Positions 9,201 to 55,721 of a DNA stretch of 64,000 nt are shown in pieces. The number at the start of each line of letters is the position of its first letter. Positions within the stretch are counted from its first letter, which is position 1. The translations under genes were made by a program, and so were the position numbers. Below the pieces are notes generated by a model. That model did no database searches and had not been told where the DNA came from. It worked only from the letters and a program-made list of their open reading frames with translations. Origin of the DNA: an uncultured Verrucomicrobiae bacterium (GTDB lineage: Bacteria > Verrucomicrobiota > Verrucomicrobiia > Limisphaerales > SIBH01); the NCBI GenBank assembly GCA_963760275.1, contig CAVXCM010000013.1, forward strand, positions 910,653 to 974,652, read 5' to 3'.

Positions 9201-9979
9201 TCTTTGGGATGCTGGAGGAAAAGGCGGAGACCAGGGACGACGGGATGATTCGTGTTCCCGAATGGTCGCAAAGCGAGTTGCTCGCCCACGAAAAGGAGTT
9301 GCTCGGGTTTTATATCACGGGTCATCCGCTTACACCTTTTGCCCCATTGCTGGAGAAGTACACGCTCACCAACTCGGGAACCGCGTCGGCGCTCGCTGCC
9401 CGCACCATGACGCGGATTGGTGGCATCGTGACGGCGGTGCAGCAAGGCATGTCGAAGAAGAGCGGCAAGCCTTACGCCATGGTGACGCTCGAAGACTTGG
9501 AGGGCACTTTTACGATGCTGTGCATGAACGAGAACTATGACAAATACCGGCACCTGCTCGAAGTGAACAAGGCGTTGTTGATCGTGGGCGAGGCAAACAA
9601 CGACGAGGATCGGGCCAAGATTTTTCCCACGGAGATCATGCTGCTGGATGACGCGCCGCGAAAATTTACCAAACAGGTTCATCTGCGACTCAACGCGGTT
9701 CATCTGAACGACGACAAGCTGCGCGCCATCTTCGATCTGGTCGCGGCTTTTCCAGGCAAGTGCCCGCTGTTCCTTTCCATACGATTGCCCGGGGGCGAGA
9801 TCGTTTTCATTGAGACCCACGATAAATATTTCGTGGCGCCATCGCGTGAATTTGAAAGGGCCGTCAACGACTTGTTGGGCGAGGACACGTATTACGTGCG
9901 GGTAGACACGACCGTGCCGGAACGGGTCAAGCGGGCTTGGGAGAAGAAAGAGCGTGAGCCCGCGATGGCCACGGAATAG
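6294..9979 (+). CDS. dnaE: DNA polymerase III alpha subunit, interrupted by five frame breaks in this assembly
   Basis: PHP domain N-terminus MSHADFVHLHLHTEYSLLDG. To follow conserved DnaE sequence the frame must be switched by +1 at about 6780, 7054, 7099, 7263-7265 (GGG run) and 7772-7774. The segments read AIDWFKQTLGAENFYLELQNHG / EEMKALFAEVPEAV / NTLEVAEKCNLEIEFGKLHYP / GQDFIVEG...GFISYFLIVADFIRYG...PPDIDIDF / ARVMGLSYGDGDRLAKMIP. 7703..9979 is one intact ORF. Confidence 0.9.
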
Positions 9980-17727: not shown

Positions 17728-19537
17728 TCATGGCTTTAATTTCGTTCGCACCAGTTCAGGGAGATATTTCACCGGAACCGATCCCTGCGAGAGAACCGCT
17801 TCGTGATACCGGGCGAGGCTGAATTTTTCTCCCAACTCGCGCTGCATTTGTTCCCGCAAGCGGACGTGCGCCATGCGGCCCACGAAGTACGTGCTCAGTT
17901 GCGTCGATGTTTGTTTCGCCCGAACCAGCTTGGCTCTCGCCTCCTCTTCGGATTGGAACGCTCCGTTCGTCATCAGTTCAATGGCTGCTTCGTCGGACAT
18001 TTCCTGCACATGGAGCTTATGATCGAGGATGGCATTGCACACCGCGCGCAAATAGAACTTCAACTGGTTCAGCCGCAACGCCAGTTCGTCCGTGCCCGCC
18101 CCGTAGCCTTGGTCGAGCATCATCTGCTCTGTGTAAACGGCCCATCCTTCAATGGTGACGCCGGATTGCAGAACGCGCCGAAGGAAAGAGGGGGTACGGC
18201 TGGAATATTCGAGCTGCACGTAATGGCCCGGATAGGCTTCGTGGATGGTGAGGATTTGCAGCATGTGCCGGTTGTACTCCTCGAGCAGGCTCCGAGTGCG
18301 CTGCGGAGTCCAATCGCTGGCGGGCGGGCTGATGGCGTAAAAGCTCGGCGCTTCCGGGTCGAGCGGCGGCGCGCCGTTCAAGTAGGCGAGGGAATTGCCT
18401 CGCTGAAACTCCGGCATCTCAATGATCTGGCAACGATCAGGTTCCGGCAGGCGTAAGATGTTTTTCTCGCGGATGAACTTTTTGATTTGATCGACCTGCG
18501 CCCGTGCATCCACCAGCAATTCCTCCGGCTTGCTGTGTTCCTTCGACACTGCCGCAATGACCTTGGCCACCGTTTCGCGCCGACCGGCGACGTCTGTGAC
18601 CGGCAACGGCGTCATGGGGAAATACCGATGCCAAAGCTGGCGTGCTACAACATACATGTCGCTATGCACCCGGGAGAATTCGGTCTCGGCATCCCGCAGA
18701 ACTTCCTCCGCGGTTAAACCGGCGTTCAAGGTGAGCTCCAGTTTCCGCGCGAATTTCCGTTTACCTAACCGCCATTCGCCGGTGGCGGCGCGGCAATAAA
18801 TCCTTCTCCAGAAAATCTTGGTACTCTTTCAGGACGGGCACAATCCGCGCCGCTTCCGCCTTGAGGGTTTCAAGTTGTGATGTTTCACCGACCGCTTCAA
18901 ACAGGTCCTTTTCGTAAAAGCCAATCGAACCTTTATTCTGACGAATGGCCGTCTCCAGGACCACGCGCGGAGGATGTTTCAGGTTCAATTTTGCCGCGGC
19001 AACGACCGCGGGAACGCCTTTCATTCGTTGGATGGCATTGGCCACGTTCGTCTCCTTGGGCAACCGCGATTGGGTGAGAAGTAGGAAGATGCTGTCGCTG
19101 ATGTATTCGTTGTAGATGCGCGGGTTGTTTGCGAAGGGCTGAGTGTTCTCGCGCACCCAGATCGCTGCCTCCAGTTCGTGCGCGAAAATATCGAAGTTGA
19201 TGCGTTCATCGGCTGACAGTTTCGTCCGGTCAATATCCCGTCGGAGCCGCGCGCGGGATTGCTTCAAGTGATCGAGCGAGTTTTCCAGCCCCGCTGGGGA
19301 AAGGTCATCCAACTTGTGATCGAAGCGATGATCGCCCAGTTGTGTCGCCTCCATGGGATGCAGCGCAAAACGCTCGTCGAGGTACCGGCGGAAGAATGTT
19401 TCAAGCTGCGACTCGGCGCCCGAGGCCTGGGACGAGAGGAGGAATACGGTGAGCAGCCCGAAAACAAATTGCCCGTGGGCGTCTCGCTTCAAGCAGAGGC
19501 GGATGAAACTGAACAAGGCTGTTTTGAATTTACGCAT
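17728..19537 (-). CDS. DUF885-family protein (metallopeptidase-like), one +1 frame break at about 18785-18795
   Basis: N-terminal part is ORF 18761..19537 and the C-terminal part is 17728..18729. They join as EKDLLPR/AATGEWRLGKRKFARKLELTLNAG. The HEAYPGHY motif is characteristic of DUF885. Confidence 0.75.
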
Positions 19538-20796
19538 AACGATCTGGATTCAGCAGTGTGATGGGGAGCGACGGCTCTTCGCCACTGAGGATTTCGCTGA
19601 TCAGCCGGCCGGTGATTGGTCCCAAGCTCAAGCCCATCATGGCGTGGCCGGTGGCGATGGTGAGGTTCGAGAACTTCGCCGTGCGGCCGAGATACGGCAG
19701 CCCATCCGGCGAGCACGGACGCAAGCCGCGCCACGGCTGGATGCCCGCGAAATCCTCCGGCGGTGAACTTCGGAAAGTATTTCGGCACCGCCTTGATGAT
19801 GCCGCGCACGCGCACGGGATTGATGTCCTCGTTCAAGCCCGGCGATTTCCATCGTGCCGCCGAAGCGCAGCGTGTCGCCCATCGGCGTCACCGCCACGCG
19901 CGCCTCGGTGAAGATGGAACAAAGCTGCGGCAGTTCGCGCGGCTTGGTGAGCGTGAGGCTGTAGCCTTTGCCGGCTTGCATCGGGAGTTTCAGTCCGAGT
20001 TCGCGCGCCGAGTGACGGGAGACCACGAACCGCCGCAGAGGATGAATTCGTCTGCCGCGAACTCGCCCGACAGCCGTCGCAGACTGCCGGAGACACGACT
20101 GAACCGTTTTGCGCGAACGGCAGTCACCTCGGTGCGCCCAAACAAACTTCACGCCCAGCGCGTCGCACTGCCGCTTCAATCCCCGCCATGAAGCGATTCG
20201 GCGAGAGATGGCAGTCCTTCGGGAAATAAACGCCGCCCACCACGTCCATCGTCACCGTCGGGATCGAGTTTCGCGAGTGCCTTGGCATCGAGCACCTGCG
20301 CCGGCACGCCGAGTTCATTGGCTTGCGCGGCGTACTTCGCCTCGTCATCCAGGCCATGCTGGGTTTTGCAGAGCATCACCAGGCCTTTCTTCACCAGACC
20401 GAAGTCATTGTCTGGCAGCGCCGCCAGTTCCTCGAAGCAATCACGGCTGGCGAAACTCAAATCGCGAATCAACGGTGCGCTGCGTTCAACGTGTGCGCAT
20501 TCGCGGCGCGCATGAACTTCCAGCCCCACGACATCAGCTCCCAGTTCAGGCGCGGCTTGATGTAGAGCGGCGACTCGGGATTCCACATCCACTTGAGCGC
20601 CGTGCTCACCGACGCCCGGCGCCGCCAGCGGCACGAAGTGACTCGGCACCACCATGCCCGCGTTGCCGAACGAGCAGCCATCTCGCTCATCGGCATTCCG
20701 ATCGATGACGGTGACGCGATGGCCGCGGCGTGCGCAGTAATAGGCAGTGGAAAGGCCAATCACACCGGCGCCGATGACGAGAATGCGTTTGCTCAT
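19530..20796 (-). pseudogene. FAD-dependent D-amino-acid dehydrogenase (DadA-like; candidate cis-4-hydroxy-D-proline dehydrogenase), about 8 frame breaks
   Basis: FAD fold MSKRILVIGAGVIGLSTAYYCARRGHRVTVIDR. DadA-like blocks are scattered over three frames: STALKWMWNPESPLYIKPRLNWEL / HVERSAPLIRDLSFASRDCFEEL / TVTMDVVGGVYFPKDCHLSPNRF / LGVKFV / TEVTAVRAKRFSRVSGSLRRLSGEFAADEFILCGGSWSP / ELGLKLPMQAGKGYSLT...TMEIAGL / NEDINPVRVRGIIKAVPKYFP / DFAGIQPWRGLRPCSPDGLPYLGR...TGHAMMGLSLGP. Confidence 0.8.
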
Positions 20797-22301
20797 GGCG
20801 CCGTGACCGCACCATCCAGCGCGCGAATGGGCCAGAGCGGTGACTTCACGTGTTGCTGGTCCAGCAAGGCGGCCAACTTTTTCACGACGACGGGCTCTTG
20901 CGAAGCGACGTCCATCGTCTCGCCCGGATCGTTTGCGAGATTGTACAGTTCAATGCGTCCGGGAGTTTGATCCCTGGCATTGCGTGGCGGATTTAGCCGG
21001 GTGCGAATCGCTTTCCAATCCCCCACCCGCACGCATTGTTGTCCGCCGTAACCTGGAGATTCGCGGTAAAGAAAAGGACGCGGCGGTTGAGCGTGGCCCA
21101 ACAGTGTCGGGGCAAAACTAATTCCGTCTGTTCCTGCCGGCACCGAACTCTTTGCGCCGGTGAGTTCCAACAACGTGGGCAGCCAGTCTTCAAAGCCTGT
21201 CACGCGATCGCTGGAACTGCCGGGCTTGATTTGGCCGGGCCAGCGAACCAGGCATGGGATGCGAAAACCGCCTTCGTAATACGAGCCCTTGCGCCCGCGC
21301 CAGCCTGCGGCGCTGCGGAAGAAATCCGTGTCCGTTCCTCCGAGTTGATCGTACAGCGGTCCATTGTCGCTGGTAAAAATGACCAGCGTCCGTTCGTCCA
21401 ATCCAAGTTCCTTCAGCAACGCCAGCACCCGGCCCACATCCCGATCCATTCGCGTGATCATTGCGGCGTAAGCTGCCCGTGGCGTGCGGTGGGGCAGGTA
21501 GCCGCGGCCGCCGGGATAGGGCGTCTCAGGAAATCGTCCTTCGAATTCCCGCAGGGAATCCTCCGGCACTTGCAACGCGAGATGCGGCACCGTCGTCGGG
21601 TAGTAGAGGAAGAAAGGGCGATCCTTATTCTCGCGCAGGAAACGCAGCGCTTCGCGCCCAATGAGGTCGGGCGCGTAATCTGTGCCGGTGAACTTTACAT
21701 AGCTGGCGGGCGCATTCGGATCGGCACCAGCCGGGAGTTTTTGGTGGGCGGAGAATTTCTCGTTCCTCAGCACCGTGCGAGTGGCGTTGGACCAGAGATG
21801 AGTAGGATAAGAATTGTGCGCCACGGCCTGGCAGTTGAAGCCAAAGAAGCGATCGAACCCCTGCCGCAGCGGATCACCCGAACTGCCGACCGGACCGAGG
21901 CCCCATTTTCCGAAGGCACCCAGTCGATACCCTTCAGCCTTCAACAAAAGGGGGAGTTTCAACTCGCCCGGCGGCACCGGTTGCTGGCCTTCGCCGTTTT
22001 CGCCAAGGCCGCCGCGATTCTCCCGGATGTACCCATGTCCGGGATGTTTCCCGGAGAGCAATGCGCAGCGGGACGGGGCACAAACGTTATGCCCGGAATA
22101 GTGTGCCGTGAACTTCATTCCTTCCGCGGCCAAACGATCAATGTTCGGCGTCTTGAACTTCTCCTGCCCGTAACAACTCAGGTCTCCATATCCCAAATCG
22201 TCCGCCAGGATGAACACGACGTTCGGGCGATCCGCCGCCACGACTGTCAGGGCAACGGCGAGCCAGCTCGCGCTAATAATCCACTTCCGGCACCAGTTCA
22301 T
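20793..22301 (-). CDS. arylsulfatase-family sulfatase (formylglycine-dependent)
   Basis: RPNVVFILADDLGYGDLSCYG and the CxPxR motif in NVCAPSRCALLSGKHPGH. N-terminal signal peptide. The start overlaps the upstream stop by ATGA. Confidence 0.9.
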   Translation of the reverse strand: MNWCRKWIISASWLAVALTVVAADRPNVVFILADDLGYGDLSCYGQEKFKTPNIDRLAAEGMKFTAHYSGHNVCAPSRCALLSGKHPGHGYIRENRGGLGENGEGQQPVPPGELKLPLLLKAEGYRLGAFGKWGLGPVGSSGDPLRQGFDRFFGFNCQAVAHNSYPTHLWSNATRTVLRNEKFSAHQKLPAGADPNAPASYVKFTGTDYAPDLIGREALRFLRENKDRPFFLYYPTTVPHLALQVPEDSLREFEGRFPETPYPGGRGYLPHRTPRAAYAAMITRMDRDVGRVLALLKELGLDERTLVIFTSDNGPLYDQLGGTDTDFFRSAAGWRGRKGSYYEGGFRIPCLVRWPGQIKPGSSSDRVTGFEDWLPTLLELTGAKSSVPAGTDGISFAPTLLGHAQPPRPFLYRESPGYGGQQCVRVGDWKAIRTRLNPPRNARDQTPGRIELYNLANDPGETMDVASQEPVVVKKLAALLDQQHVKSPLWPIRALDGAVTAP

Positions 22302-23182
22302 TGTGAGAGTTTCTCCGCGATTTTATGGAACCGTTTTCTTATCTCTGCCGACGTTCCAATCGTCAACCACGCGTCATACTCGAACTTCATTCCGGGCGTG
22401 ATGGCGAAATCCTTGATGGGCGCAAAGTAAGAGCACGAGCCGTGATCCCGCTTCCCATCTCCGAAGCGATAGCACGTCAGCGACGTTGCCACGGGCACAA
22501 ACACGCCCACTCCCACGTCGCTGGCATTGACATATGCCGCCCATCGCTCGGTGAATCGCCGGTACTCGTTCGGCCAACCCGGCTTAAAGCCGACGATCGG
22601 CTCACCTGCCCAGGCGTTCGTGCCTTCGTAAACCAGCAGCGTGCTGTACTGCGGCTCGACGAACACGGCAGGAAGTTCCTGGCTTCGATTGGGATGTGTG
22701 TTTGTCCCGGTATAAGTCATCCGAAACTTTACGTGCGCCAACAAACCGGTGAGCGAAATCCATTCCTCGAAGATCACCTCTGGCAAATCTGCGCCGGTGG
22801 CCCAATGCTTCGCCATCGTTTTGGCGTAGAGCGACGATCCTTCTAATTTTAACTCCAGGACGGTTGCCGGTTCGTGATTCCAGCCGCCGCCTTGCACTGG
22901 GTTCCAGTGCCACGGCTGGTTGTTCCACATCGATCCATCCTTGGCGCCGTAGAACGATTGCTGTACCAGCCTCCCGCGGTCCCAGTGATTGATCACGTTC
23001 TCGCCGGTGGCATTGAGCGCAAGATATGCGATGCCGGCGCCGGAGGATTTCTTTACACCCAGGCGCAAGGCACCGTTTTCGATGTATACGAAGTCGTTGG
23101 TCGCGCGCTCGGCGGGCGCGGCGGAGAGGAACCACGGAAGACACAGCAGACACAGAATCAGGAGGCGAAGGACATTCGTCAT
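22298..23182 (-). CDS. secreted hypothetical protein
   Basis: Signal peptide MTNVLRLLILCLLCLPWFLSAAPA. 294-aa Trp-rich ORF translationally coupled (ATGA) to the sulfatase. I recognise no family. Confidence 0.55.
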   Translation of the reverse strand: MTNVLRLLILCLLCLPWFLSAAPAERATNDFVYIENGALRLGVKKSSGAGIAYLALNATGENVINHWDRGRLVQQSFYGAKDGSMWNNQPWHWNPVQGGGWNHEPATVLELKLEGSSLYAKTMAKHWATGADLPEVIFEEWISLTGLLAHVKFRMTYTGTNTHPNRSQELPAVFVEPQYSTLLVYEGTNAWAGEPIVGFKPGWPNEYRRFTERWAAYVNASDVGVGVFVPVATSLTCYRFGDGKRDHGSCSYFAPIKDFAITPGMKFEYDAWLTIGTSAEIRKRFHKIAEKLSQ

Positions 23183-23210
23183 AGGCGTGCGTTTCTACTT
23201 TGCCCACCAC

Positions 23211-24134
23211 TCAACGTATCCCCCAACAGAACGGATCTCGTTCATCGAGCAGGAGCGTAGCCTCTGAATTGACGAATGCGGTACCCGTGATAATGGGAAT
23301 GATTTTGTCGCCATCGCGTCGATAACGGCCGGTGAAGGAACTGCCAATCAAGCTTTCCTGCACCCACGAGTCACCTTCCTTGAGCTTTCCGTCGGCAGCG
23401 AGACAAGCGAGCTTTGCACTGGTGCCAGTGCCGCAGGGCGAACGGTCGTAGGCTTTGCCGGGACAGAGGACGAAGTTGCGCGAATGGCCGCCAGGCAATT
23501 GCGGCGGGCCAAACAGTTCAACGTGATCCACTTCGGGATAACCCTGCGCGTTCAGCGCCTGTCGAATCGCCCATGAAAGTTCCGTGAGCTTCTCGACGTT
23601 GCTCAAGGCCAGCGACTGGCCGTGTTGCTCCACGAGAAAGAACCAGTTGCCGCCCCACGCCAAGTCGCCGGTTATTTTGCCCACGCCCGGCACGTCCACC
23701 GTCACGCCCTTGGCCTTGCGATAGCTCGGCACGTTCTCGACGGACACCGAGCCATCCTCGTGCAACGTGGCCGTGACCACGCCCACGCACGTTTCGATGC
23801 GATGCGCGCCCGGCTGGATGCGCCCCAGATGCGCGAGCGTGACGATCAGGCCGATGGTCCCATGCCCGCACATTTGCAAAGGCCCGACGTTGTTGAAGAA
23901 GATGACTCCGGTGACGCATGTCGTATCCGTCGGCGCCACGAGCAGCGCGCCGACAATCACATCCGAACCGCGCGGTTCGTTGACGACGGCAGAGCGGAAG
24001 TGGTCATGCTTTTCGCGGAACAACTTCACACGCTCCGCGATGGGGGCGTTCCCAAGATCCGGCCCGCCGCTGATGACGATGCGTGTTGGTTCACCGCCAG
24101 TGTGGGAGTCAATGATTTGGATGCGTTTCAACAT
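23211..24134 (-). CDS. proline racemase-family enzyme, most likely 4-hydroxyproline 2-epimerase
   Basis: [14 protein letters not shown]-terminus. Both catalytic Cys contexts are present ([10 protein letters not shown] and [11 protein letters not shown]). Confidence 0.88.
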
Positions 24135-24168
24135 GGATACTTCTTCAGTTGGATGGCTGGTCTCACGT

Positions 24169-25548
24169 TCAGTTCACCCTCAGTGCCCGCTGAATCCTTA
24201 TCGCCGGCTTGAGCGATTGGCCGTCAGCCGGGGCGGCGTGAATCTTCCGCACCACGTCCATGCCCTTCACCACTTTGCCAAAGGCGGCGAAGCCCTGGCC
24301 GTCGGGATTCCGTTTGCCGCCAAAGTCCAGTTCAGGCTGGTCGCCGACGCAGATGAAGAAGTGGTCCTGCGCGCTGTCCGGCTCCGCGCGCGCCATCGAG
24401 ATGGTGCCGTCGAGATGCTTCAGCCCGGTGTCGCGCGTGCGCTCGATTTGGATGGGCGGGAAGAACTCGTTGGTCTTCGCCGGATTGGCCGAGGCTTGAA
24501 TCACGGCAATCTTCACCGCGTTCGTCGGCTGGTTTGCGGACGTGACGGTGCGGTGGAACTCGCCGTCGTTGTAGAGACCGGCCTGCACGTAGCGCAGGAA
24601 ATTCGTCACGGTCTGCGGCGCGGCTTTCGCATCCAGTTCCACTTCAATCACGCCGAGCGCGGTCTCGATGGAGACGCGCGGCTTCTCCGGCACGTCCGGT
24701 TTGCGCCATTGGAAGCGCGGGGCCTTGCTGGCGTCGTAGCCGGCGAGATGCGCGCGGTCGGCGGCGGCGCGGAGGGCAGGTTTCTTGTAGCGCCACGGGC
24801 CATCCCCGAAAACCTCGGCGCACAGCGCGGCGACCTTCGGATCGTATTCCTTCAACTGCGCGCGAGTGTGGACGTGGTTGTGCAGCGCGTCGTTGCGGCG
24901 GTTGTCGTCGAACCAGTTCTGCGCGGCCTCGGCCCAATACTCGCCGGGATTGCTCGCGGCGTAGGTGCCTTTCCACAGGCCGGCAGTTGGTCGCGCTTTG
25001 ATACGCCTCACGCAGGCGGCGATCGAACGTCGGGTCAATCGCCCGCAACGCCACGCCGTGAATGACGTGCGAGAACTCATGCACCAGAATGTTCTCGGTC
25101 GAATACGGATCGCCCGGGAAGCTCAGCATGTTTTCCTCCGCACAACTGGCGATGCGCCCGCCCAATCCACGCGCGCGGCGATCCCAATACACCTTCGGGG
25201 TCATGTTCGCCTGCTCGGGGATGTCGGTCGTGTATTCGTTGTGCGCCATCACGACGAGCCGCGCGCCATTCGTGGCGAGCGCATGGAGGATGTCCGCGCG
25301 GTTCGTGAGCATCTGCCGAATCACCCAGGCCGACTCCAACATCGCGAAGTCCGAGACGTTCGAAGAGCCGAGGATGGGAAAGCCGTCGAGGTCGATGTGC
25401 TTCTGGTAGAACGGGGCGAGTTTGGCGCTGCGCCGCAACTCATCGGAAACCGGGCGAACAACGTCGGCAGCGGACGCGGCGAAGCCACAAAGAATTATTA
25501 CCGCAGAGGCGCAGAGGCGCAGAAATGGGGGGACAGAAGTGGGAACAA
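24169..25548 (-). CDS. HExxH zinc-metallopeptidase-like domain fused to cyclophilin-type peptidyl-prolyl isomerase; one frame break at about 24985; start unresolved
   Basis: N-terminal domain carries [14 protein letters not shown] and, after the frame switch, [14 protein letters not shown]. The C-terminal ~165 aa is cyclophilin-like ([36 protein letters not shown]...GTISMARA...[12 protein letters not shown]...[14 protein letters not shown]). A signal-like [19 protein letters not shown] has no in-frame canonical start before it. The only upstream Met codons lie inside the REP element. Confidence 0.7.
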
Positions 25549-25583
25549 AGGCCGTGCTCGATCGTCGCGATGCGCTTCCGCGC

Positions 25584-25675
25584 GAAGCCCGGAGGGCTTC
25601 AACACGAATAGCCCCCGGTGCAACCGGGGGTAACGGCGTGAAGGAAGAAACCAACCCCGGAGGGGTTGAACCCAA
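25584..25675. repeat. REP-like cluster of three GC-rich hairpins (left flank of RAYT)
   Basis: Three 7-bp-stem hairpins: GAAGCCCggaGGGCTTC (25584-25600), CCCCCGGtgcaaCCGGGGG (25611-25629), CAACCCCggaGGGGTTG (25652-25668). It is the near-perfect reverse complement of 26188..26276. Confidence 0.85.
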
Positions 25676-25719
25676 TCGCGCCGTCTGTCCAAACACCGCC
25701 TGAACCATGGCACACGTCT

Positions 25720-26166
25720 TCATGGCAAAAACCTTTCATCCAGTTCCATCCCCGCCCTCTGCAACATATCCCGATATTCTTCCAGAAACGGCACGGCGCG
25801 ATGATGTTCCTCCTGTCCCTTGATGTATTCGATCAATCCATCCCGTTCCGCCCACGAACAGGTCAGCGCGGCATAACCCTCCTGCCACCCCTCAAACTCC
25901 GGGAACACACGCTCATCTTTGATCCATTTCGACGAAGCGACCTTGAGGTCTTTGATGAAATCCGCGAGCGCCACCGTTGGATGCAGTGAGGAGAGGATGT
26001 GAACGTGATCTTCCACACCACCAATGCGGTAGAGATGACAGTCGTGGTTTTTGATGACGCCCCAGAGGTAGCGGAACAGATCGTCACGCCTGGCTTTGTT
26101 CAGAACACGCCGCCGCCCCTTCGTCGCGAAGACGATGTGATAGACGATTTGCGTGTAGTTGGACAT
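25720..26166 (-). CDS. REP-associated tyrosine transposase (RAYT; IS200/IS605 TnpA-like HUH Y1 enzyme)
   Basis: MSNYTQIVYHIVFATKGRRRVL..., HUH motif DHVHIL, C-terminal LIEYIKGQEEHH (Tyr helix). 148 aa, the typical size. Confidence 0.85.
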   Translation of the reverse strand: MSNYTQIVYHIVFATKGRRRVLNKARRDDLFRYLWGVIKNHDCHLYRIGGVEDHVHILSSLHPTVALADFIKDLKVASSKWIKDERVFPEFEGWQEGYAALTCSWAERDGLIEYIKGQEEHHRAVPFLEEYRDMLQRAGMELDERFLP

Positions 26167-26187
26167 GGCTGGGAATGGTTCGTCGTT

Positions 26188-26276
26188 GGATTCAACCCCT
26201 TCGGGGTTGCGTCGTAATTCGGTTCGTTACCCCCGGTTGCACCGGGGGCTATTCACGTTGAAGCCCTCCGGGCTTC
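26188..26276. repeat. REP-like cluster of three GC-rich hairpins (right flank of RAYT, inverted)
   Basis: CAACCCCttcGGGGTTG (26193-26209), CCCCCGGttgcaCCGGGGG (26230-26248), GAAGCCCtccGGGCTTC (26260-26276). The order is mirrored relative to the left flank. Confidence 0.85.
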
Positions 26277-26314
26277 CGTTGTGGGCATTCGTGAGCTCAG
26301 TTTCCTTTCGCGAT

Positions 26315-27225
26315 TTACTTCCGCTTCGGAATCTTCGGCCGGCTGGCGATGCCGTCGTGGATGATCTTCAGCACGCGTTTGCGTTCCTCGCCTTTCAACA
26401 CGAGGCGCGGCGCGCGAACCCATTCCTTGCCAAGACCGGCTTCCTGCACGGCCAGCTTGATGTATTGCACAAACTTCGTGCTGACATCGAGGTGCAGCAG
26501 CGGCGTGAACCAGCGGTAAATGTCGCGGGCCTCGTCCCATTCGCCGCGCCGGGTCAGTTCCCAGAAATATTGGTTCTCCGCCGGGAAGGCGATGCCGCTG
26601 CCGGCCACCCAGCCGTCGATGCCGAGGATGCTCGCCTCCAGCGCGAGGTTGTCCACGCCGGTGAAAATGGCGTAGCGGCCACCGACCGTATTGTGCAGGT
26701 CGGTGATGCGGCGCACGTCGCCGGAACTTTCCTTGAGCGCGACGAAGTTCTTCTGATCGGCCAGCTTGCGCGAACAGCTCGGGCGTGATGTCGTTCGCGT
26801 AGCTGATCGGGTTGTTGTAAATCATGATCGGCAACCCGGTGCACTTCGCCACGGTGCGGAAGTGCGTCAGCGTTTCGTCCGGGTCGCCTTTGTAGAGCAT
26901 GGCGGGCATGAGCATTACGCCGTCGGCGCCGAGCTTCTCCACGTCGCGCACGTAACGCACCGCTTCCGCCGTGCTGGTTTCGGCGACGCCGCTCAGGACC
27001 GGGATGCGGCCGTTCACCGCCTCGATCATCGCGGTCATCACGCGGCGCTTTTCCTCGCCGGTCATGGGCTGGTTCTCGCCGAGCGAGCCGAGGAAGATCA
27101 TGCCGCTCGACGCCGGACTTGATGAGCGCTTCGACGTGACGCGCGGTCGCGTCAAGGTCGAGCGAGCCGTCCTTGTGCATTTGGGTGGTGATGGCGGGAA
27201 AGACGCCTTGCCAGATGTGTTTCAT
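26315..27225 (-). CDS. DapA/DHDPS-family lyase (candidate pyrroline-4-hydroxy-2-carboxylate deaminase), two +1 frame breaks at about 27105 and 26766
   Basis: MKHIWQGVFPAITTQMHKDGSLDLDATARHVEALIKSGVE / GMIFLGSLGENQPMTGEEKRRVM...GADGVMLMPAMLYK...IMIYNNP / LADQKNFVALKESSGDVRRITDL...LGIDGWVAGSG lie in three successive frames. Confidence 0.8.
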
Positions 27226-27258
27226 GTCAGTGATTCGTGGTCAGTGTTGGGATTGGAA

Positions 27259-29460
27259 TCAAAATGCTACGTCCAGTTTGTTCAATGTGAGGTAAAGCGG
27301 CCCGGCCGCCGATGGCCCGGTTGTGAAGGGCAGATTGTACCGCACTTCCATCTGCATCACGGGTCGCAACTCAGCCGTCTCAATGAAAACAGATTTACCG
27401 TCGGGCAACACTTTCGCAGAGCGCACGGCGACTTCATCGCGGCCTTCCTTGCCCGGATCGGCGGAGGAGTAATCCTTTGAACCGTAGTCGGCGGCGTAGC
27501 GGTAGTTCCATTGCTTCAACGCATAGCTTCCTGGATCTTCGGCGGCGGCTCTGTCGAGAGGCTCGGCGAATGTGAGTTTCAATCCGTTCCGATGCGCGTG
27601 CCAGGCGATGGGAGTGCGCGTGACGGTGCCGGTGCGGCGGACTCGTTGCAGTGAACCGTCTTTCGCGGCGCTGGTCTGCCAACCGGTGCTGCCGGCGATG
27701 TAGAGATGACCATCCTTCGGCGAGAACGTTCCGCGCATCGGTCCGGACAAAAATCTCCCGGGCAACGCGACGGCAGCGCCTTGTGGCTGGCCATCAACTA
27801 CATCACGTAAGATCAACGCCATGGCACAACGGCCCCAGAGCAGGTGCAACATTTTGCCACCGAGCGCGCCCCAGGCGCCTTCAGGCACCCAGACCTGGCT
27901 GGAGCTGGAATTATCAAACGCGTGGGGCAGCCAGCAGAGCGGCGCGTCGTATCCCAGCGGTCGCTCCGAATTTGCTCTCGGTCCACCATAGCCATAATGC
28001 GCGCCAGGCCTTACCTCGAAGATTGCCGAGGAGGGCGTCCACTCGCCCTGCTGCGGCGCGGTCGTGATGGTGGGCCCGGGCCCTACGCCGAGCCCGTTAG
28101 GATTTCGAAGGCCGGCGGCTAATGTCTCTTTTATCTCTCCATCCGCAGAAATGCGCTGCACGCCTTTGGGATCGACGTAGTAAAAATTGCCAGCCGCATC
28201 CTGTTCAAGGCAGGTCACGTAATCATGCCCGCCCGTCGACGTGGAAATGTTGTTGAAGAAGTTTTCATAGAAGTCTGCCTCACCGTCTCCATTCTCGTCG
28301 TGCAACACGGTGATTTGGTCTCGACCGAGAACATAAATCTTTCCGTCGCGCACCCGCAGGCCCAACGGCTGAAACAAACCCGTCGCGAACCTGCGCCACG
28401 TGAGTTTTTGGAGACTTTCATCAACCCCACTGACAAGCCAGACGTCGCCATGAATGGTGCAAATCGCTGCGTCGCCATCCGGCAGAAAATCCACGCCGGA
28501 GACAAACATGAGCGCCTTCCAGGGGTTGTCGTACGGTAGCGTCAATGTGTCGATGGCGAATCCATCAGTGGCGAAGCCGCGCTGTCCCTTGGTGGTCAGC
28601 GGCTTCCAGCGGGGCGCAGAGGCCTTCGCAAGTTTCGTTAAATCTTCTGCGGGGGCGGATTGTTTCACCACCGACGCCAGGGCGCTGGCGCTGTCCGTTG
28701 TGTAGAATAGTTTCGCGCGCAGGATTTCGTTGGTGGCAAGAAGGCGGAGCTTGAGCAGGCCGTTCTCCTCAAAAAGCTCGGCGGCATTCCCGAGCACGGC
28801 GAATCTTAAACGCTCGTCGCGTAACGCGACCGTGGCGACTTTCACTCCATCAACATTTGTGATTTCAACCGCCCTCGCTTGCGACAGTGTCAGCAAATTC
28901 TCGCTGTCTCGCGAGATTTCATAAGTGCGCGTCACGGCCGTGATCCCCGCTGCGCGTTCGACCCAGGGAGATTCGAGGACGCGAGTTTTACCCACGATGT
29001 ATTCGAGAACGACGCGAGCGTCACTCACGTGCAAACCGCGCCAGCGGACGGTTCCCCTCCACGCCGGAGATCCTGCGGCGAGGAAGCGTACTTCACCGTC
29101 CGGCTTAGGCGCGCGCACCAGACCGTATCGAGCGGAGTCAAACTTCAAAAATCCGTCCGTCCAAATTCCGCACAGCGTCGCGGTGGCGGTGTCGTACACA
29201 GCGGATACGATGCGCTCATTGCCCATGCGTATTGAAAGCCCCTTGGCCACCGAACCGCCTGGCAGCGCCACCACGGAGGAATGAAAGTTCCCAAGAACCG
29301 TTTTATTCCAGCGCGCATCCACCCAGTCTCCCTCGTCCTGCCGCTCGACGGACTTCCCTGCGGACGCAGTCTCGCCGGCACGCGGCGCCTCCGCCGACCA
29401 GGAAGTGAAACTCAACGCCAATGCGGCGGCACTGGTCACAAGGAATGCTTCAATCTTCAT
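27259..29460 (-). CDS. secreted beta-propeller protein, PVC-type putative membrane-bound dehydrogenase-like domain
   Basis: Signal peptide MKIEAFLVTSAAALALSFTSWSAEA. Core PLGLRVRDGKIYVLGRDQITVLHDENGDGEADFYENFF...GGHDYVTCLEQDAAGNFYYVD...GLRNPNGLGVGP resembles the soluble sugar-dehydrogenase-like propeller of Planctomycete/Verrucomicrobial proteins. I saw no CxxCH haem motif. Confidence 0.55.
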   Translation of the reverse strand: MKIEAFLVTSAAALALSFTSWSAEAPRAGETASAGKSVERQDEGDWVDARWNKTVLGNFHSSVVALPGGSVAKGLSIRMGNERIVSAVYDTATATLCGIWTDGFLKFDSARYGLVRAPKPDGEVRFLAAGSPAWRGTVRWRGLHVSDARVVLEYIVGKTRVLESPWVERAAGITAVTRTYEISRDSENLLTLSQARAVEITNVDGVKVATVALRDERLRFAVLGNAAELFEENGLLKLRLLATNEILRAKLFYTTDSASALASVVKQSAPAEDLTKLAKASAPRWKPLTTKGQRGFATDGFAIDTLTLPYDNPWKALMFVSGVDFLPDGDAAICTIHGDVWLVSGVDESLQKLTWRRFATGLFQPLGLRVRDGKIYVLGRDQITVLHDENGDGEADFYENFFNNISTSTGGHDYVTCLEQDAAGNFYYVDPKGVQRISADGEIKETLAAGLRNPNGLGVGPGPTITTAPQQGEWTPSSAIFEVRPGAHYGYGGPRANSERPLGYDAPLCWLPHAFDNSSSSQVWVPEGAWGALGGKMLHLLWGRCAMALILRDVVDGQPQGAAVALPGRFLSGPMRGTFSPKDGHLYIAGSTGWQTSAAKDGSLQRVRRTGTVTRTPIAWHAHRNGLKLTFAEPLDRAAAEDPGSYALKQWNYRYAADYGSKDYSSADPGKEGRDEVAVRSAKVLPDGKSVFIETAELRPVMQMEVRYNLPFTTGPSAAGPLYLTLNKLDVAF

Positions 29461-29671
29461 TACAACGATGGAGTGTTTGTTGGCGAATTGGAATTGAACG
29501 GGGACGCGGATTCAACGCTGTTCGCGAGAAGGTCGCGCTGTGTTTTGGATTTCCTCTTTCCTAAGCGGGAAGAGATTTTCTGAAAGTGAGAATCGCGCAT
29601 CAGATCTTTGAGCGTTGATACAACGAGGCTGTCCTCAGCGAGCTCGGGAACGCACAAACAGTCGGTCCTGC

Positions 29672-32152
29672 TCAGTTCCACCTTGGTTCCCTCCGGTGCA
29701 GGGCGCGCACGAAGAAATCCTGCAGTCGGCGTTTTCCATAGGCGCTGCCCGCCACGCCGTGGCCCGCCCCGGGCACGACGAGATACTCAAAGTCCTTGTT
29801 CGCTTTGATCAGTGCATTGGCGACCTGTGCGGTGCTGGCCGGGTCCACATTGCGATCCATTTCACCCACCATCAAAAGCAGCTTGCCCTTGAGGTTCTTC
29901 GCGAGCGTGACGTTGCTTTGCTCATCGTAATGCTTCTCCACGGGCCAGCCCATCCACTGTTCATTCCACCAGATTTTATCCATGCGATTATCGTGACAGC
30001 CGCAGTCCGAGACCCCGGCCGTGTAGAAGTCGCCGTGGGTGAGCAGGCCGCCCAGGGCATTCTGGCCGCCCGCACTTGTGCCGTAGATTCCGACGCGCGT
30101 GAGGTCGATCTCGGGGTGTTGCGCGGCGGCGGCTTTAATCCAAAGAATGCGATCCGGGAAACCCGCGTCGCCAATGTTCTTCCAACACACGTCGTGGAAC
30201 TTTTTGGAACGCTGGCTCGTTCCCATCCCATCCATCTGCACGACGATGAAGCCGAGTTCCGCCAGTTCCTGCATTCGCGGGACGGCACTAAAGGACTTCG
30301 GTGCAAAGGCGCTGTGAGGGCCGGCGTAAATGTTTTCAATGATGGGATATTTCCTCGCTGGATCGAAATGGGTCGGCCGCACAATCACGCCGTGGATATC
30401 CGTGGTCCCGTCGCGGCCTTTGGCAACGAATCGTTCCGGCGCGCGCCAGCCTTCTTTCACCAAGGCGCTCGCGTCAGCGGCTTCCAAGCGACACACCATC
30501 CTGCCATCGTCGGCTCGCCTCAGCTCCGTTACTGCCGGCATGTCCACGCGGGTGTAAGTGTCGATAAGAAACCTGCGGTCCGGCGAGAACTCGACTGTGT
30601 GTGTGCCATCTCCTTCGGTGAGTTTCACCAGAGAACTGCCGTCGAAATTCACACGGCAGTAATGGATGAAGTAAGGGTCTTGTTCCGGAAAGATGCCGCC
30701 AGCTCGAAACCAGATTTGCCGCTTCTCCCGGTCCACCCGTTCAACCCCGCGCACGACCCATTCGCCTTTCGTGATTTGGTTTTTCACCCGGCCCGTCCTG
30801 GCGTCGTAGAGATACAAGTGGTTCCACCCATCCCGCTCCGACATCCAAATGAGCTCCTCGGTTTCATTGAGCCATTCGAGAAAGCTCTTGCCGCTGTAGT
30901 CGATGAAGGTCTTGCTCTGCTCATCGACGATGGCGCTGACGTGAGCCTGGTTTGCGCTTCGTGGCTCCTGGTTGGTGGGTACTTCGACGGCAATGAGCCG
31001 CAGCACTTGATGCCCTCGCTGGTTGTAGCGGAAGGTAAAGCGGCTCGAGTCTTTCTCCCAACGAATGTCCATGTTGCCAGTCTCGGTGAATGGATTCGGG
31101 AACAACTCGTCACTCACCGAAATCTGCGACTTCGCGTTTACATCGAATAGCGCTGGCCGCGGATGCGGCAGCTGGTCTCCAGGTTTGTAGTAATCGAACG
31201 TGACGAGCTTGGGCTGCACCTGATCCTTTGGCGACGACTCCACGAGACTGACCTTGCGTTCCTGTCCCGGCTTCACGCGCACCGCCACGAAATGTTTCGA
31301 GTTGGTCGACCAGTAAATACGGTCTCGATACGCATCCGTCTGGCTGCCGTCCGTCGTCAGCACGGTTACTTCACCGGTGGTGATCTCTTTGAGCACCACG
31401 TTGTAGTCCTTGATGACAGTCCGCCATTTACCATCGGGCGAGGTATCGCGCGGTTGAACACCATTCGCGCCGCCGTTGCGATTGCTGCGTGGGGGGATTG
31501 CACTCACCGGCGCACCGTTGGTGGTGATAACGGCGTCACTTGCTCGCTCAACGGCTTCGAAGCTTGCCAGCGTTTTGCCCGCGGCATCCGCTGCCACCCA
31601 GGCATGACCGGCAAACGTATGCTGATCGCGCTGGGCGCCTGAGGCGAGCTTGCCATAGCTCTGCCGGGTGCCATCAGTCGCAAGCCAGAACAACTCCACT
31701 TCGTCGCTGGTTCGGTTGATGAAAGTAAGCGAAGTCTCGAGCCCGGTGCGTGGACTGGAGCGGCGTTCACCCAGGTTTGGAGCGGTTGGTTTCAAGGGAT
31801 CCACGGGCCTTCGGTCCAATTTTTGGCGCTCCCCGGTTTCCGCGTTAATCAAAAAAATCTCGCTCGTGTTGGTCCCCGTCTTCACCTCGTACCAGAAGTT
31901 GGTATTGCCGGGCATCCAATGGGCCTGCACCCGGTCGCGAAAAACTTTTCCTGAGAAGCGCTGCGAGAGATTCGCGGCCCGCTCGTAATCGGCTTTGGAC
32001 CCTTGGGCTTGCGCGGGCGATGTCGTGAGGAGCACGAGCCCGACCGCCAGCGAGGATAGAAACTTATATGCGGATTGGCCGGGGCGCTTCCAGGAAAGCG
32101 CCCGCTCGTTCGCATCCTTCGAAACGCGAGGCCAGTATTTTGCGCGTGTCAT
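29672..32152 (-). CDS. S9-family serine peptidase, dipeptidyl-peptidase IV-like (N-terminal propeller plus alpha/beta hydrolase)
   Basis: Nucleophile elbow IYGTSAGGQNALG, acid region MVGEMDRNVDP, His region VVPGAGHGV. Long N-terminal DPP-IV-type propeller region and a signal/anchor LSSLAVGLVLLTTSPAQAQG. Confidence 0.85.
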   Translation of the reverse strand: MTRAKYWPRVSKDANERALSWKRPGQSAYKFLSSLAVGLVLLTTSPAQAQGSKADYERAANLSQRFSGKVFRDRVQAHWMPGNTNFWYEVKTGTNTSEIFLINAETGERQKLDRRPVDPLKPTAPNLGERRSSPRTGLETSLTFINRTSDEVELFWLATDGTRQSYGKLASGAQRDQHTFAGHAWVAADAAGKTLASFEAVERASDAVITTNGAPVSAIPPRSNRNGGANGVQPRDTSPDGKWRTVIKDYNVVLKEITTGEVTVLTTDGSQTDAYRDRIYWSTNSKHFVAVRVKPGQERKVSLVESSPKDQVQPKLVTFDYYKPGDQLPHPRPALFDVNAKSQISVSDELFPNPFTETGNMDIRWEKDSSRFTFRYNQRGHQVLRLIAVEVPTNQEPRSANQAHVSAIVDEQSKTFIDYSGKSFLEWLNETEELIWMSERDGWNHLYLYDARTGRVKNQITKGEWVVRGVERVDREKRQIWFRAGGIFPEQDPYFIHYCRVNFDGSSLVKLTEGDGTHTVEFSPDRRFLIDTYTRVDMPAVTELRRADDGRMVCRLEAADASALVKEGWRAPERFVAKGRDGTTDIHGVIVRPTHFDPARKYPIIENIYAGPHSAFAPKSFSAVPRMQELAELGFIVVQMDGMGTSQRSKKFHDVCWKNIGDAGFPDRILWIKAAAAQHPEIDLTRVGIYGTSAGGQNALGGLLTHGDFYTAGVSDCGCHDNRMDKIWWNEQWMGWPVEKHYDEQSNVTLAKNLKGKLLLMVGEMDRNVDPASTAQVANALIKANKDFEYLVVPGAGHGVAGSAYGKRRLQDFFVRALHRREPRWN

Positions 32153-32272: not shown

Positions 32273-33844
32273 TCAGAGACCGCCTGGAAGTTTTAATTTC
32301 TTAGCCGCTCCCCCCAACCACTTTGGAGCTCGCGGCGAGTCGTAACGTTCTGCGGCCGCGCGGCGAAATTCTTTTTCCAATTTGCCCTGGGCCCAAGTGA
32401 AGAAGATGACACTCTTGGCAACCATCAGCCCGGGCCCAATCCCCCAACAGCAGGGCACCACGAGGAGGAGGAGGGGGAGGATCAGCACGTAGAGCACGGT
32501 CTTGGTCAAGGCCTGGGCGGGAGTGGAGGAAGTGAGGCCCAACCATAAACCGACTTCGGCCACGGCGAATAAATCCAGCACGAACCAGGCGAGGCAAAAG
32601 CCCAGCACTAAAATCAAGATGAGACGCGCGATGACTGGGTTCCCACTCTGCACAAACAGAACGACCCCCGCCGCGATGAACGTTTCCACGGCCAGCAGTG
32701 CAATCACCGGCCCCATGAAAAGCTCGCGCAGCGCAAGGTGCTGTCCCCGGATTATCTGACGGGCCGTCAGCGGAGTGCAAAGGAGCAGTTCCATGGCTCC
32801 AGAATTTCGGGCGTCAGCAAACGAATGGCAGGCTTCGAATGCCACCCAGATGGCCAGTCCCAGGTGCAGGAGGATTGCGCCGACGAAGACGACCCACAGG
32901 ACGGCACGTTCCGAAAACCCCATGGTGAATCCGAGCAGCCCGAGAGTGGATGTGATCATCACGACAATCCGCAGCCAAAGTTGCCGATCATGAGTGCGCG
33001 CCGTGAGCCACCAGATTGGATTGAGGATCAGGAGCGTATTGCGACGGCGAAGTTTTTTGTTGGGGTCCTCGATCCGCCGCCGTCCGATCGGTCGCCGTCC
33101 GGTTTCCTGCCAGAGGCGCGGCAAGAGGTAGCTGGCCAGCGCCAGCCAGCACCAGCTAATGCCGTGCGTTATCCAGAATGCATTCCAATACCGCGATGGA
33201 AGTGCGGTATAGCGGCTGTCCTCAAATAGCCAAAAGGGTGTGAAAGGACTGACTTGCGAAAGCAGGTTGAATTTCAGCACGGCCCCCAACGTTGGGCACA
33301 CGACGACGAACAACAGGACGAGGAGGAACGTCGCGGTCCACGCTCTCCGGTCACTACGGCTGACTGCCGATACAAACGTGCCGGCGGTCAGCGAAAAGAA
33401 GAGCGCATTGATCAGCGCCAGGACCAGCCGCCAGAACTCACCGCCCGTGACGCCGCCCAGCATCACAGGCACGGCCAGGGCCGGAATCATGGCGATGAGC
33501 GAATAAAAACTGGTGAGCGACGACGCAATGAATTTTCCCAGGACCACGTCGTAGCCTTTGAGGTCCGTGAGGAATAACAGCCCCAGAGTGCCTTCCCGCT
33601 TTTCCACGCTGAGCGAGTCTGCGGTGTTGCGCAGCCCTTCCAAGACCACGAAGGGAAAGGCTAGCCAGCCGAGAGTGACAAGCACGCCATGGCCGATGGG
33701 CCCGGCGGACGCGACAGACATGAACATCAGGACGAAGCTCACCACGGCGGTGGCGAGGAAGGCGATAGCGCCGCGAATCCAGTAGGTGGAACGCCACCGT
33801 GCTCGCTGGCGCAGTTCGCGCTCGACAACGGGAAGGAAAGTCAT
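32273..33844 (-). CDS. ABC-2-type permease, paralog 1 (apparent internally duplicated TMD)
   Basis: MTFLPVVERELRQRARWRSTYW... The N-half motif VEKREGTLGLLFLTDLKGYDVVLGKF is echoed in the C-half by ARNSGAMELLLCTPLTARQIIRGQHL. About 12 hydrophobic segments. Confidence 0.75.
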   Translation of the reverse strand: MTFLPVVERELRQRARWRSTYWIRGAIAFLATAVVSFVLMFMSVASAGPIGHGVLVTLGWLAFPFVVLEGLRNTADSLSVEKREGTLGLLFLTDLKGYDVVLGKFIASSLTSFYSLIAMIPALAVPVMLGGVTGGEFWRLVLALINALFFSLTAGTFVSAVSRSDRRAWTATFLLVLLFVVVCPTLGAVLKFNLLSQVSPFTPFWLFEDSRYTALPSRYWNAFWITHGISWCWLALASYLLPRLWQETGRRPIGRRRIEDPNKKLRRRNTLLILNPIWWLTARTHDRQLWLRIVVMITSTLGLLGFTMGFSERAVLWVVFVGAILLHLGLAIWVAFEACHSFADARNSGAMELLLCTPLTARQIIRGQHLALRELFMGPVIALLAVETFIAAGVVLFVQSGNPVIARLILILVLGFCLAWFVLDLFAVAEVGLWLGLTSSTPAQALTKTVLYVLILPLLLLVVPCCWGIGPGLMVAKSVIFFTWAQGKLEKEFRRAAAERYDSPRAPKWLGGAAKKLKLPGGL

Positions 33845-33944
33845 GCGTCAGCAAGTCCAGCGTCCACCCTCCTCCCAATCGCAAGTGTTGCGCCGGGGAA
33901 CAATCGGAACTGAGCAACCCGGAATGAAGATTCGATGGAGCAGT

Positions 33945-35648: not shown

Positions 35649-35995
35649 TGAGGAAAACTCCAAACTTCAAATTCGAAACTCAAAAAAAGCGCCAGGCACC
35701 AAGTCATTGCTCGGCAGACCTGCGGAGCTGCGGTCGCCCGTCGGCGTTGTGATTGACTTGCGTTCATCCGGTTCGATGGCGCGGCGCGCGGCGTGAGTGT
35801 GGCGCGGTGTCGGCGCAGCCACCAGCCTGCTTTGACCACATGGTGTGATGCGGTGCATTCGTGTTTGCCGGGAACATCCGAGGATTGAGCGGCCACTAGT
35901 TTCAAAATCAGGCTGTGGGTATCGCGTGGCTTGAGCGCTGCGTTTTGAAAGTTGGTTGGCGTTTGGATTCTGAAGTTGCGGGTTTTCATGGCCGG

Positions 35996-55717: not shown

Positions 55718-55721
55718 TCGA

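Follow-up and report, generated by a model that had tools for sequence, protein, structure and literature searches.

This study concerns a 64,000-nucleotide stretch of DNA from an uncultured Verrucomicrobiae bacterium of soil or freshwater (assembly GCA_963760275.1, contig CAVXCM010000013.1, positions 910,653 to 974,652; hereafter the window) and an array of genes within it, which encode enzymes related to 4-hydroxyproline (Hyp) catabolism and predicted exported peptidases. Listing of the open reading frames (ORFs), combined with Pfam and NCBIfam scans, revealed an unbroken run of coding sequences on the minus strand, extending from position 32152 down to 17728. Both this layout and the protein families agree with a preliminary description of the same DNA, which had been made from the sequence without database searches. 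We argue below that a conserved core of the array probably serves the use of Hyp-containing peptides. The features, in the order in which they would be read, are:

29672..32152, minus strand: S9 peptidase (DPPIV_N + Peptidase_S9), exported, 826 aa; Pfam Peptidase_S9 4e-44, DPPIV_N 1e-36
31526..31738, minus strand: VHL beta-domain-like module, aa 139-209 of the S9 protein; Pfam VHL 31.9 bits (cut-off 21)
27259..29460, minus strand: DUF6797 protein, exported, 733 aa; Pfam DUF6797
26315..27225, minus strand: DHDPS-family gene (DapA-like; proposed pyrroline-4-hydroxy-2-carboxylate deaminase); Pfam DHDPS; two +1 frameshifts
25584..26276: IS200/RAYT-like element including its inverted repeats, with a Y1 transposase gene at 25720-26166, minus strand; Pfam Y1_Tnp 4e-24
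24169..~25560, minus strand: HExxH-cyclophilin fusion, exported; Pfam Pro_isomerase 9e-31; one +1 frameshift
23211..24134, minus strand: 4-hydroxyproline 2-epimerase (predicted), 307 aa, intact; Pfam Pro_racemase (PF05544) 7e-101
22298..23182, minus strand: unk294, exported, 294 aa, family-less; recognised by synteny with the related loci L001 and L081 (see below)
20793..22301, minus strand: sulfatase, exported, 502 aa, intact; Pfam Sulfatase 4e-59
19530..20796, minus strand: DAO-family FAD enzyme (proposed cis-4-hydroxy-D-proline dehydrogenase/oxidase); Pfam DAO on the N-terminal ORF; eight frameshifts
17728..19537, minus strand: DUF885 protein, exported, HEAYPGH motif, putative metallopeptidase; Pfam DUF885; one +1 frameshift

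Signal-peptide-like N-termini were recognised in the S9, DUF6797, HExxH-cyclophilin, unk294, sulfatase and DUF885 proteins, while the epimerase is without one. The ORF coordinates reproduce exactly the ATGA overlaps previously noted at 22298-22301 and 20793-20796.

Predicted hydroxyproline catabolic genes and their neighbourhood

The epimerase carries a pair of cysteines, Cys89 (in the motif MCGHG) and Cys234 (in SPCGTG); dehydratases of the Pro_racemase fold have Cys/Thr or Ser/Thr in place of the catalytic Cys/Cys pair. With the 4-hydroxyproline epimerase models of NCBIfam the protein scored 426 and 424 bits, compared with 219 bits for ProR and 182 bits for t3HypD. Among PDB entries it matched Pseudomonas aeruginosa PA1268 (2AZP) at 419 bits and 4J9W and 4JBD at ~412 bits, the true proline racemases reaching ~160-170 bits. 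Both epimerase scores lie just under the equivalog cut-offs (426 vs 450 and 424 vs 442), a shortfall that fits a divergent phylum. These comparisons support its prediction as a 4-hydroxyproline 2-epimerase (HypE), as originally proposed, and not as a proline racemase or a trans-3-hydroxyproline dehydratase.

The DHDPS-family protein scored 175.5 bits with the dapA model TIGR00674, below the cut-off of 206.15. In comparison with the E. coli enzyme, its Lys164 (Schiff base) corresponds to Lys161 and its Tyr136 to Tyr133; Ser141 stands in the place of Arg138, and Ser/Leu in that of Thr44/Thr45. Its best PDB match was the putative DHDPS 3NA8 (136 bits), with true DHDPS enzymes reaching up to ~118 bits. 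The score below the cut-off and the loss of Arg138 support the earlier view that the protein is not a lysine-biosynthetic DapA. For the DAO-family protein, the best NCBIfam model was that of the DadA subfamily (304 bits, cut-off 383) and the best PDB match was glycine oxidase (111 bits). We propose that the DAO-family protein is a cis-4-hydroxy-D-proline dehydrogenase/oxidase and the DHDPS-family protein a pyrroline-4-hydroxy-2-carboxylate deaminase.

The window epimerase was used to retrieve 80 genome loci, which represent many phyla. Of these 80 loci, 41 have a DAO-family gene and 47 have a DHDPS-family gene linked to the epimerase; in ~25 loci a DAO orthologue (49-86% identity) lies directly downstream of the epimerase gene. 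The DHDPS-family genes fall into two subtypes: that of the window (54-92% identity), found upstream of the epimerase, and a ~40%-identical type found downstream and often followed by an aldehyde dehydrogenase (ALDH) gene. Genes for ALDH, GntR regulators and amino-acid permeases recur in these loci. In the literature, the neighbourhood that defines 4-hydroxyproline 2-epimerase (4HypE) function comprises DAAO- and DHDPS-family genes (PMC4113996), and it is matched by the window trio together with the recurring ALDH, GntR and permease genes. The co-occurrence of three enzyme classes of the Hyp pathway, pointed out from the sequence alone, is thereby extended, as the same DHDPS and DAO types adjoin such epimerases in many unrelated genomes. 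S9 genes were found near the epimerase in 11 of the 80 loci and DUF885 in 6 of them by tblastn, and a cluster of DUF885 ORFs spans 8 loci.

The closest related locus, L001, derives from a metagenome-assembled genome of Verrucomicrobiota; its epimerase is 90% identical to that of the window and the same core genes are present, all of them intact. Seven genes occur in the same order in the window, in L001 and in a second syntenic locus, L081: S9, DapA-like, HExxH-cyclophilin, epimerase, unk294, DAO and DUF885. Since this order has been kept despite heavily diverged to saturated synonymous sites (dS 0.57-1.96), the core array is more than a chance assembly. The proline-specific exported peptidases travel with the cluster, as anticipated. 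The sulfatase, DUF6797 and transposase genes are limited to the window and absent from the L001 and L081 arrays. L001 is interleaved instead with GH39, ankyrin and GNAT genes, the GH39 gene standing in the place of that for DUF6797, and the sulfatases of other epimerase loci are only 21-33% identical to the window sulfatase. The sulfatase, the DUF6797 protein and the IS200/RAYT-like element are lineage-specific insertions and not parts of the system (in the case of the DUF6797 protein, probably so). The suggestion of a sulfated glycoprotein as the substrate had relied on this sulfatase, which is not conserved in the array, and it finds no comparative support. Likewise, of the ten genes sharing one theme that had been envisaged, a core of seven stands, whereas four genes are frameshifted and the sulfatase, DUF6797 and transposase genes are missing from L001 and L081.

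The epimerase ORF of L081 (14797-16470, plus strand) encodes 557 aa, i.e. ~250 aa more than that of the window; the extra length may stem from fusion to the next gene (a GNAT gene in L001) or from an artefact of ORF calling.

A dehydrogenase for alpha-ketoglutarate semialdehyde (KGSA), which the preliminary description had advised looking for nearby, is not encoded in the array. The only ALDH gene in the window (4-1155, plus strand) is truncated and located 16.5 kb from the array, on the other strand and past dnaE, rpsB, tsf and pyrH. Its product is ~25% identical to the cluster-linked ALDHs, with StyD and BADH (phenylacetaldehyde and betaine-aldehyde dehydrogenases) as the best models, and it was rejected as the KGSA dehydrogenase of the pathway for being too generic and too distant. 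A search of the window for a KGSA dehydrogenase, a transporter or a regulator yielded nothing beyond this ALDH.

Putative exported peptidases and the VHL-like domain

The S9 protein has a predicted catalytic triad of Ser693 (in GTSAGG), Asp770 and His798, which is invariant in 70 homologues. According to Foldseek, the structures nearest to its AlphaFold2 model (pLDDT 82.7) are bacterial DPP4 (7Y4F), prolyl tripeptidyl peptidase (PTP, 2EEP) and Stenotrophomonas maltophilia DAP IV (2ECF). Sequence and model together identify it as a predicted serine exopeptidase of the S9B type (DPP-IV/prolyl tripeptidyl peptidase-like).

Residues 139-209 of this protein form, in the AlphaFold2 model, a separate seven-strand domain between disordered linkers. 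In a phmmer search of the PDB this region matched pVHL only (E 3e-4, ungapped over ~51 residues), and when the domain was modelled alone (pLDDT 88.5) the top 50 Foldseek matches were all pVHL (probability 1.0, TM 0.70-0.80). In the metazoan HIF oxygen-sensing pathway, hydroxyproline is read by the beta domain of pVHL. Its Hyp pocket is formed by Trp88, Tyr98, His110, Ser111, His115 and Trp117 (PMC9528729), to which correspond W156 (W88), Y166 (Y98), H178 (H110), T179 (S111), H183 (H115) and W185 (W117) of the S9 protein; across 70 homologues, each of these six residues is either invariant or conserved to at least 90%. The domain is ~70 aa long, with no alpha domain, no helical domain and no BC box/elongin-binding box. 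Given that the alpha domain and elongin box are missing, it is not a pVHL orthologue; by analogy, it plausibly works like the reader pocket of pVHL. As far as sequence and model can tell, the presence of such a pocket domain on the S9 peptidase supports, newly and independently, Hyp-containing peptides as the probable substrate.

The VHL + DPPIV_N + S9 architecture is shared by almost every one of the 120 best S9 homologues. A word-indexed search with a 90-aa VHL-like segment gave only 3 fragments, and the distribution of the domain is therefore based on an exhaustive search, which returned 1702 representative clusters, mostly unannotated metagenomic ones and often with tandem repeats. DPPIV_N was its commonest partner domain in a Pfam scan of 81 hits. 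Among the epimerase loci, the VHL-like domain is present on the S9 gene in L001, L009, L010 and L080. In yet another, L023, a homologue of the HExxH domain (6845-8104, plus strand, 54% identical) is followed at the end of the protein by a VHL-like domain which replaces the cyclophilin, and its gene adjoins DapA-like and epimerase genes. A literature search for functional studies of bacterial VHL-like domains found none, and only one weak in silico paper. As a side observation, the VHL-beta-like domain is elsewhere combined with fn3, ricin-lectin, TIR, SAM or ankyrin domains, and the proteins P0004-P0013 are giants of 1700-7300 aa with up to 24 tandem VHL-beta-like domains.

In the HExxH-cyclophilin gene, which starts downstream of the repeat at 25584, the HExxH motif begins at nucleotide 25081 and the cyclophilin occupies ~24187-24675 (besides Pfam Pro_isomerase, NCBIfam PpiA at 96 bits). 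The protein has 3603 homologues, and most of those listed are ~450 aa long and contain PF00160. The HExxH domain belongs to no Pfam family and found no match in a single-sequence PDB search; the weak Pfam similarities were ATLF (E 0.012, 15.7 bits vs a cut-off of 27.4) and M90 (E 0.044). The motifs HEFSH and EYWAE are invariant in 22 homologues, cyclophilin-less members that were used to build a profile. In the PDB the best matches of this profile, weak ones, were PPEP-1 and PPEP-2, which are Pro-Pro endopeptidases (E 0.09-1.3); with PPEP-1 the alignment extends over ~150 residues and takes in both the HExxH and the downstream EYWAE motif. Comparison with Pro-Pro endopeptidase by hhalign gave an E of 0.001 and a probability of 21%.

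Two ORFs share the Pfam match of the DUF885 protein, one with profile positions 1-205 and the other with 228-532. Its PDB match is 3U24 (3e-83), a structure without assigned function, and a literature search on the function of DUF885 found nothing. For unk294 there was no match in Pfam, NCBIfam or PDB; its orthologues, at the same position in the array, are 73-76% (L001) and 81% (L081) identical. It was also observed that in L099, L106, L115 and L133 DUF885 genes (54-63% identical) are placed right after VHL-S9 genes, ~2.6 kb downstream of the S9 start, with no epimerase visible in these loci, which suggests that S9 and DUF885 proteins are a functional pair.

Mobile element and frameshifts

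Between the DapA-like and HExxH-cyclophilin genes, 52-nt inverted repeats (25584-25635 and 26225-26276) bracket the Y1 transposase gene; they are 96% complementary and consist of GC-rich hairpins, and their motif is present 2 times where 0.01 would be expected. The transposase scored 72.8 bits with the IS200 model of NCBIfam (cut-off 55) and 26 bits with the RAYT model (cut-off 80). Judged by its sequence, the element at 25584-26276 is a REP/RAYT-like or IS200-like mobile insertion. Sequences related to its inverted repeats were seen in L001 (16079-16272), downstream of the DUF885 gene of that locus.

A frame map was prepared by aligning the window genes with the intact orthologues of L001. 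It revealed 12 frameshifts over four genes, nearly all of them single-base insertions outside homopolymers: (i) eight in the DAO gene (at 20610, 20496, 20263, 20180, 20136, ~20010, 19836 and 19758), (ii) two, both +1, in the DapA-like gene (27108 and 26769), (iii) one, +1, in the HExxH-cyclophilin gene (24985) and (iv) one, +1, in the DUF885 gene (18786). These, as well as the IS200-like transposase gene at 25720-26166, had escaped the preliminary gene list. The 8-nt overlap reported at 19530-19537 is obtained only by reading the DAO gene past its frameshifts as far as the stop at 19530-19532; as a coupling of DAO and DUF885 it does not stand without the repaired frame. A GC3 frame plot of the whole window gave a signal too weak for frame detection.

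The frame-breaking indels could be taken to mean that the pathway is decaying, the DAO, DapA-like, HExxH-cyclophilin and DUF885 functions being lost and the array a relic. Their concentration in four genes speaks for this, since the intervening genes (sulfatase, S9, DUF6797 and epimerase) are intact, and so does the insertion of a transposon into the array. Moreover, the frameshifts are very unevenly spread, with eight in the 1.27 kb of DAO, which a uniform error model does not predict. Yet dnaE (DNA polymerase III alpha; 6294-9979, plus strand), an essential gene, is broken likewise: it is spread over at least three reading frames between ~6750 and ~7700, with the PHP domain, DNA_pol3_alpha positions 20-149 and positions 147-260 in three different frames, and this points to local indel errors in the assembly. 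After frame repair, no internal stops were left in the four array genes, and their dN/dS values in comparison with L001 (DAO 0.15, DapA-like 0.10, HExxH-cyclophilin 0.19 and DUF885 0.10) are similar to those of the intact epimerase (0.10), S9 (0.11) and unk294 (0.09) genes, so that selection is not relaxed. Almost every indel is a +1 insertion, a pattern in keeping with a technical origin, and near-identical homologues elsewhere are intact, among them an HExxH-cyclophilin from other assemblies (P0280, 94% identical). Intact orthologues also include single ORFs in L001 for the HExxH-cyclophilin (490 aa) and DUF885 (607 aa) proteins and the DapA, DAO and DUF885 genes of L081. The length of the source contig, 1.1 Mb, points the same way. 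The repaired DapA-like and DAO proteins are 91% and 86% identical to their intact L001 orthologues. Because dnaE is broken in the same manner, dN/dS is not raised and the relatives are intact, we are fairly confident that the 12 indels came in as consensus errors when long reads were assembled and are not signs of pseudogenisation. Selective decay, which was dropped as the principal explanation in view of the broken dnaE and the normal dN/dS, is unlikely. In practical terms, frameshift-rich long-read assemblies can look like pseudogenised pathways.

The proposed system, its alternatives and known counterparts

With the reading frames taken as intact in the organism, the array would encode a two-stage system for the use of Hyp-containing peptides, consisting of an exported peptidase front end and cytoplasmic catabolism of trans-4-hydroxy-L-proline; we consider this rather probable. 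The comparisons above show the family identities, the synteny and the VHL fold with its conserved pocket; in what follows the activities, the binding of Hyp, the order of the steps and their location in the cell are inferred. In the first stage, outside the cytoplasm, four exported proteins would attack Pro/Hyp-rich polypeptides. The HExxH metallopeptidase-like domain, possibly PPEP-related, would act as the endopeptidase, while its fused cyclophilin would isomerise X-Pro bonds. The S9 protein would serve as a post-proline exopeptidase, docked on 4-hydroxyproline residues by its VHL-beta-like domain, and the putative metallopeptidase DUF885 and the conserved unk294 may also take part. Uptake and dipeptide hydrolysis would depend on enzymes encoded elsewhere. 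In the second stage, in the cytoplasm, the epimerase would convert trans-4-hydroxy-L-proline to cis-4-hydroxy-D-proline, the DAO-family flavoenzyme would oxidise the latter to pyrroline-4-hydroxy-2-carboxylate, and the DHDPS-family enzyme would deaminate this product to alpha-ketoglutarate semialdehyde. The last step, to alpha-ketoglutarate, would be left to an aldehyde dehydrogenase with its gene elsewhere.

Several points weigh against this proposal. In the array itself (17728-32152), no KGSA dehydrogenase, transporter, prolidase/Hyp-releasing dipeptidase or regulator is encoded, a transposon sits in its middle, and promoter and terminator scans gave scores not above background and so do not support an operon structure. 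The DAO and DHDPS proteins remain below every NCBIfam equivalog cut-off. The resemblance of the HExxH domain to Pro-Pro endopeptidases is statistically weak, a lead and not a result. In a set of 80 metagenome loci with S9 homologues, most of the VHL-bearing ones (40 of 51) are without Hyp genes in the DNA available. The roles given to the protein families are predictions from sequence and structure. In favour of the proposal, Hyp genes were found within 10 kb in 11 of these 51 VHL-bearing loci and in none of the 29 VHL-less ones (Fisher p 0.006), an association that is suggestive only, being confounded by phylogeny and short contigs.

It might be supposed that only the three catabolic enzymes belong together, with the peptidases, the peptidyl-prolyl isomerase, the sulfatase and the unknowns being unrelated exported neighbours that happen to be co-directional. 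The clear lack of conservation of the sulfatase, DUF6797 and RAYT genes, the GH39, ankyrin and GNAT genes interleaved in L001, the absence of an S9 or DUF885 gene from most epimerase loci and promoter and terminator scans that give no evidence of an operon all agree with such a view. It is nevertheless improbable, as it would leave unexplained a seven-gene order retained in three genomes beyond the divergence of their synonymous sites, as well as the recurrence of S9 and DUF885 beside epimerases in distant phyla; furthermore, each of the accessory proteins shows a link to Pro or Hyp (the DPP-IV type, a cyclophilin, a VHL pocket, a weak PPEP likeness). Far less credible still is a cluster dedicated to proline or D-amino acids, in which a proline racemase would be joined by a generic DadA and by a DapA of the biosynthetic kind. 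Although DadA and dapA are indeed the best NCBIfam models for the DAO and DapA-like proteins, both remain below the curated cut-offs (304 vs 383 and 175 vs 206 bits), 4HypE models and structures give the epimerase roughly double its ProR scores (426 vs 219 bits; 419 bits with PA1268 vs ~160), Arg138 of DapA is not kept, and the trio matches the published 4HypE neighbourhood (PMC4113996). The use of Hyp-containing peptides by a two-stage system is thus the reading that we retain.

Other genes of the window were recorded in passing. Immediately upstream of the array, the same strand (32273-37588, minus) encodes three paralogues of 523, 572 and 530 aa, all of them ABC-2-type membrane proteins. 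The flanking ABC-2 permease and LptF/G genes were considered as members of the system and rejected, as they are not conserved in related loci. A Bat/aerotolerance-like operon (53525-57677, minus) is made up of genes for a MoxR AAA ATPase and for one DUF58 and one BatA/VWA protein; an open frame adjoining it (51747-53666), with partial VWA and CARDB matches, may be frame-disrupted too. A 664-aa protein encoded at 42412-44406 (plus) has both a CotH kinase domain and EF-hand motifs.

Collagen and the wall proteins of plants and algae are rich in hydroxyproline. The cytoplasmic Hyp pathway is well known, while the recognition and breakdown of Hyp-rich polymers by environmental bacteria are not, and the cluster provides testable candidates for these steps. 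The catabolic trio is a member of that well-known pathway; for the peptidase set and for a VHL-type pocket on an exopeptidase, no description was found in the literature searched. If the proposal is true, a PPEP-like endopeptidase-cyclophilin, a VHL-S9 exopeptidase and DUF885 would constitute a newly recognised peptidase front end of bacterial Hyp use, and a plausible role would be given to DUF885 and to the large unannotated family of HExxH-cyclophilin proteins. More tentatively, and with slightly less than even confidence, we suggest that the VHL-beta-like domain is a bacterial Hyp-peptide binding module, comparable with the carbohydrate-binding modules of glycosidases. Placed on exported Pro-specific peptidases (S9B, and the HExxH protein of L023) and on multi-repeat proteins, it would target Hyp-rich polymers (collagen, extensins, algal wall proteins) and be genomically tied to Hyp catabolism. 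Were this so, the Hyp-reading pocket of pVHL would belong to an old and widespread family of nutrient-scavenging domains, and the Hyp-reader fold of human oxygen sensing would have a broad bacterial family with a metabolic role.

Among known systems, the HExxH-cyclophilin protein can be compared with PPEP-1 (Zmp1 of Clostridioides difficile) and PPEP-2 (ATLF/M34), with which it shares the HExxH motif, a downstream E-x-x-x-A-E and a proline-related context. It differs from them in that the similarity is marginal (E 0.09, hhalign 21%, ATLF below cut-off) and in that it has a fusion partner, which is a cyclophilin or, in the case of L023, a VHL-like domain. The S9 protein resembles the S9B enzymes (bacterial DPP4, Porphyromonas gingivalis PTP and S. 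maltophilia DAP IV) in the combination of a DPPIV_N beta-propeller with an alpha/beta-hydrolase and in the Ser-Asp-His triad; DAP IV of S. maltophilia has been reported to accept Hyp at P1. Unlike the solved S9B enzymes, to which it is 16-22% identical, it bears an extra VHL-like domain on flexible linkers. This domain has the fold of pVHL (TM 0.7-0.8) and the six residues of the Hyp pocket, with Ser111 replaced by Thr. In contrast to pVHL, it comprises only ~70 residues, is without an alpha domain or elongin box, and sits in an exported serine peptidase and not in a subunit of an E3 ligase.

[quoted passage not shown] In the window, as in that pathway, the three enzyme superfamilies are clustered, and the closest solved relative of the epimerase is PA1268; the flavoenzyme is of the single-gene type and, in related loci, lies directly downstream of the epimerase. 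Unlike the known pathway, the window cluster is without a KGSA dehydrogenase, a transporter and a GntR regulator, its DHDPS-family protein is of a distinct subtype, ~40% identical to the ALDH-adjoining one, and the whole cluster is embedded among exported peptidases.

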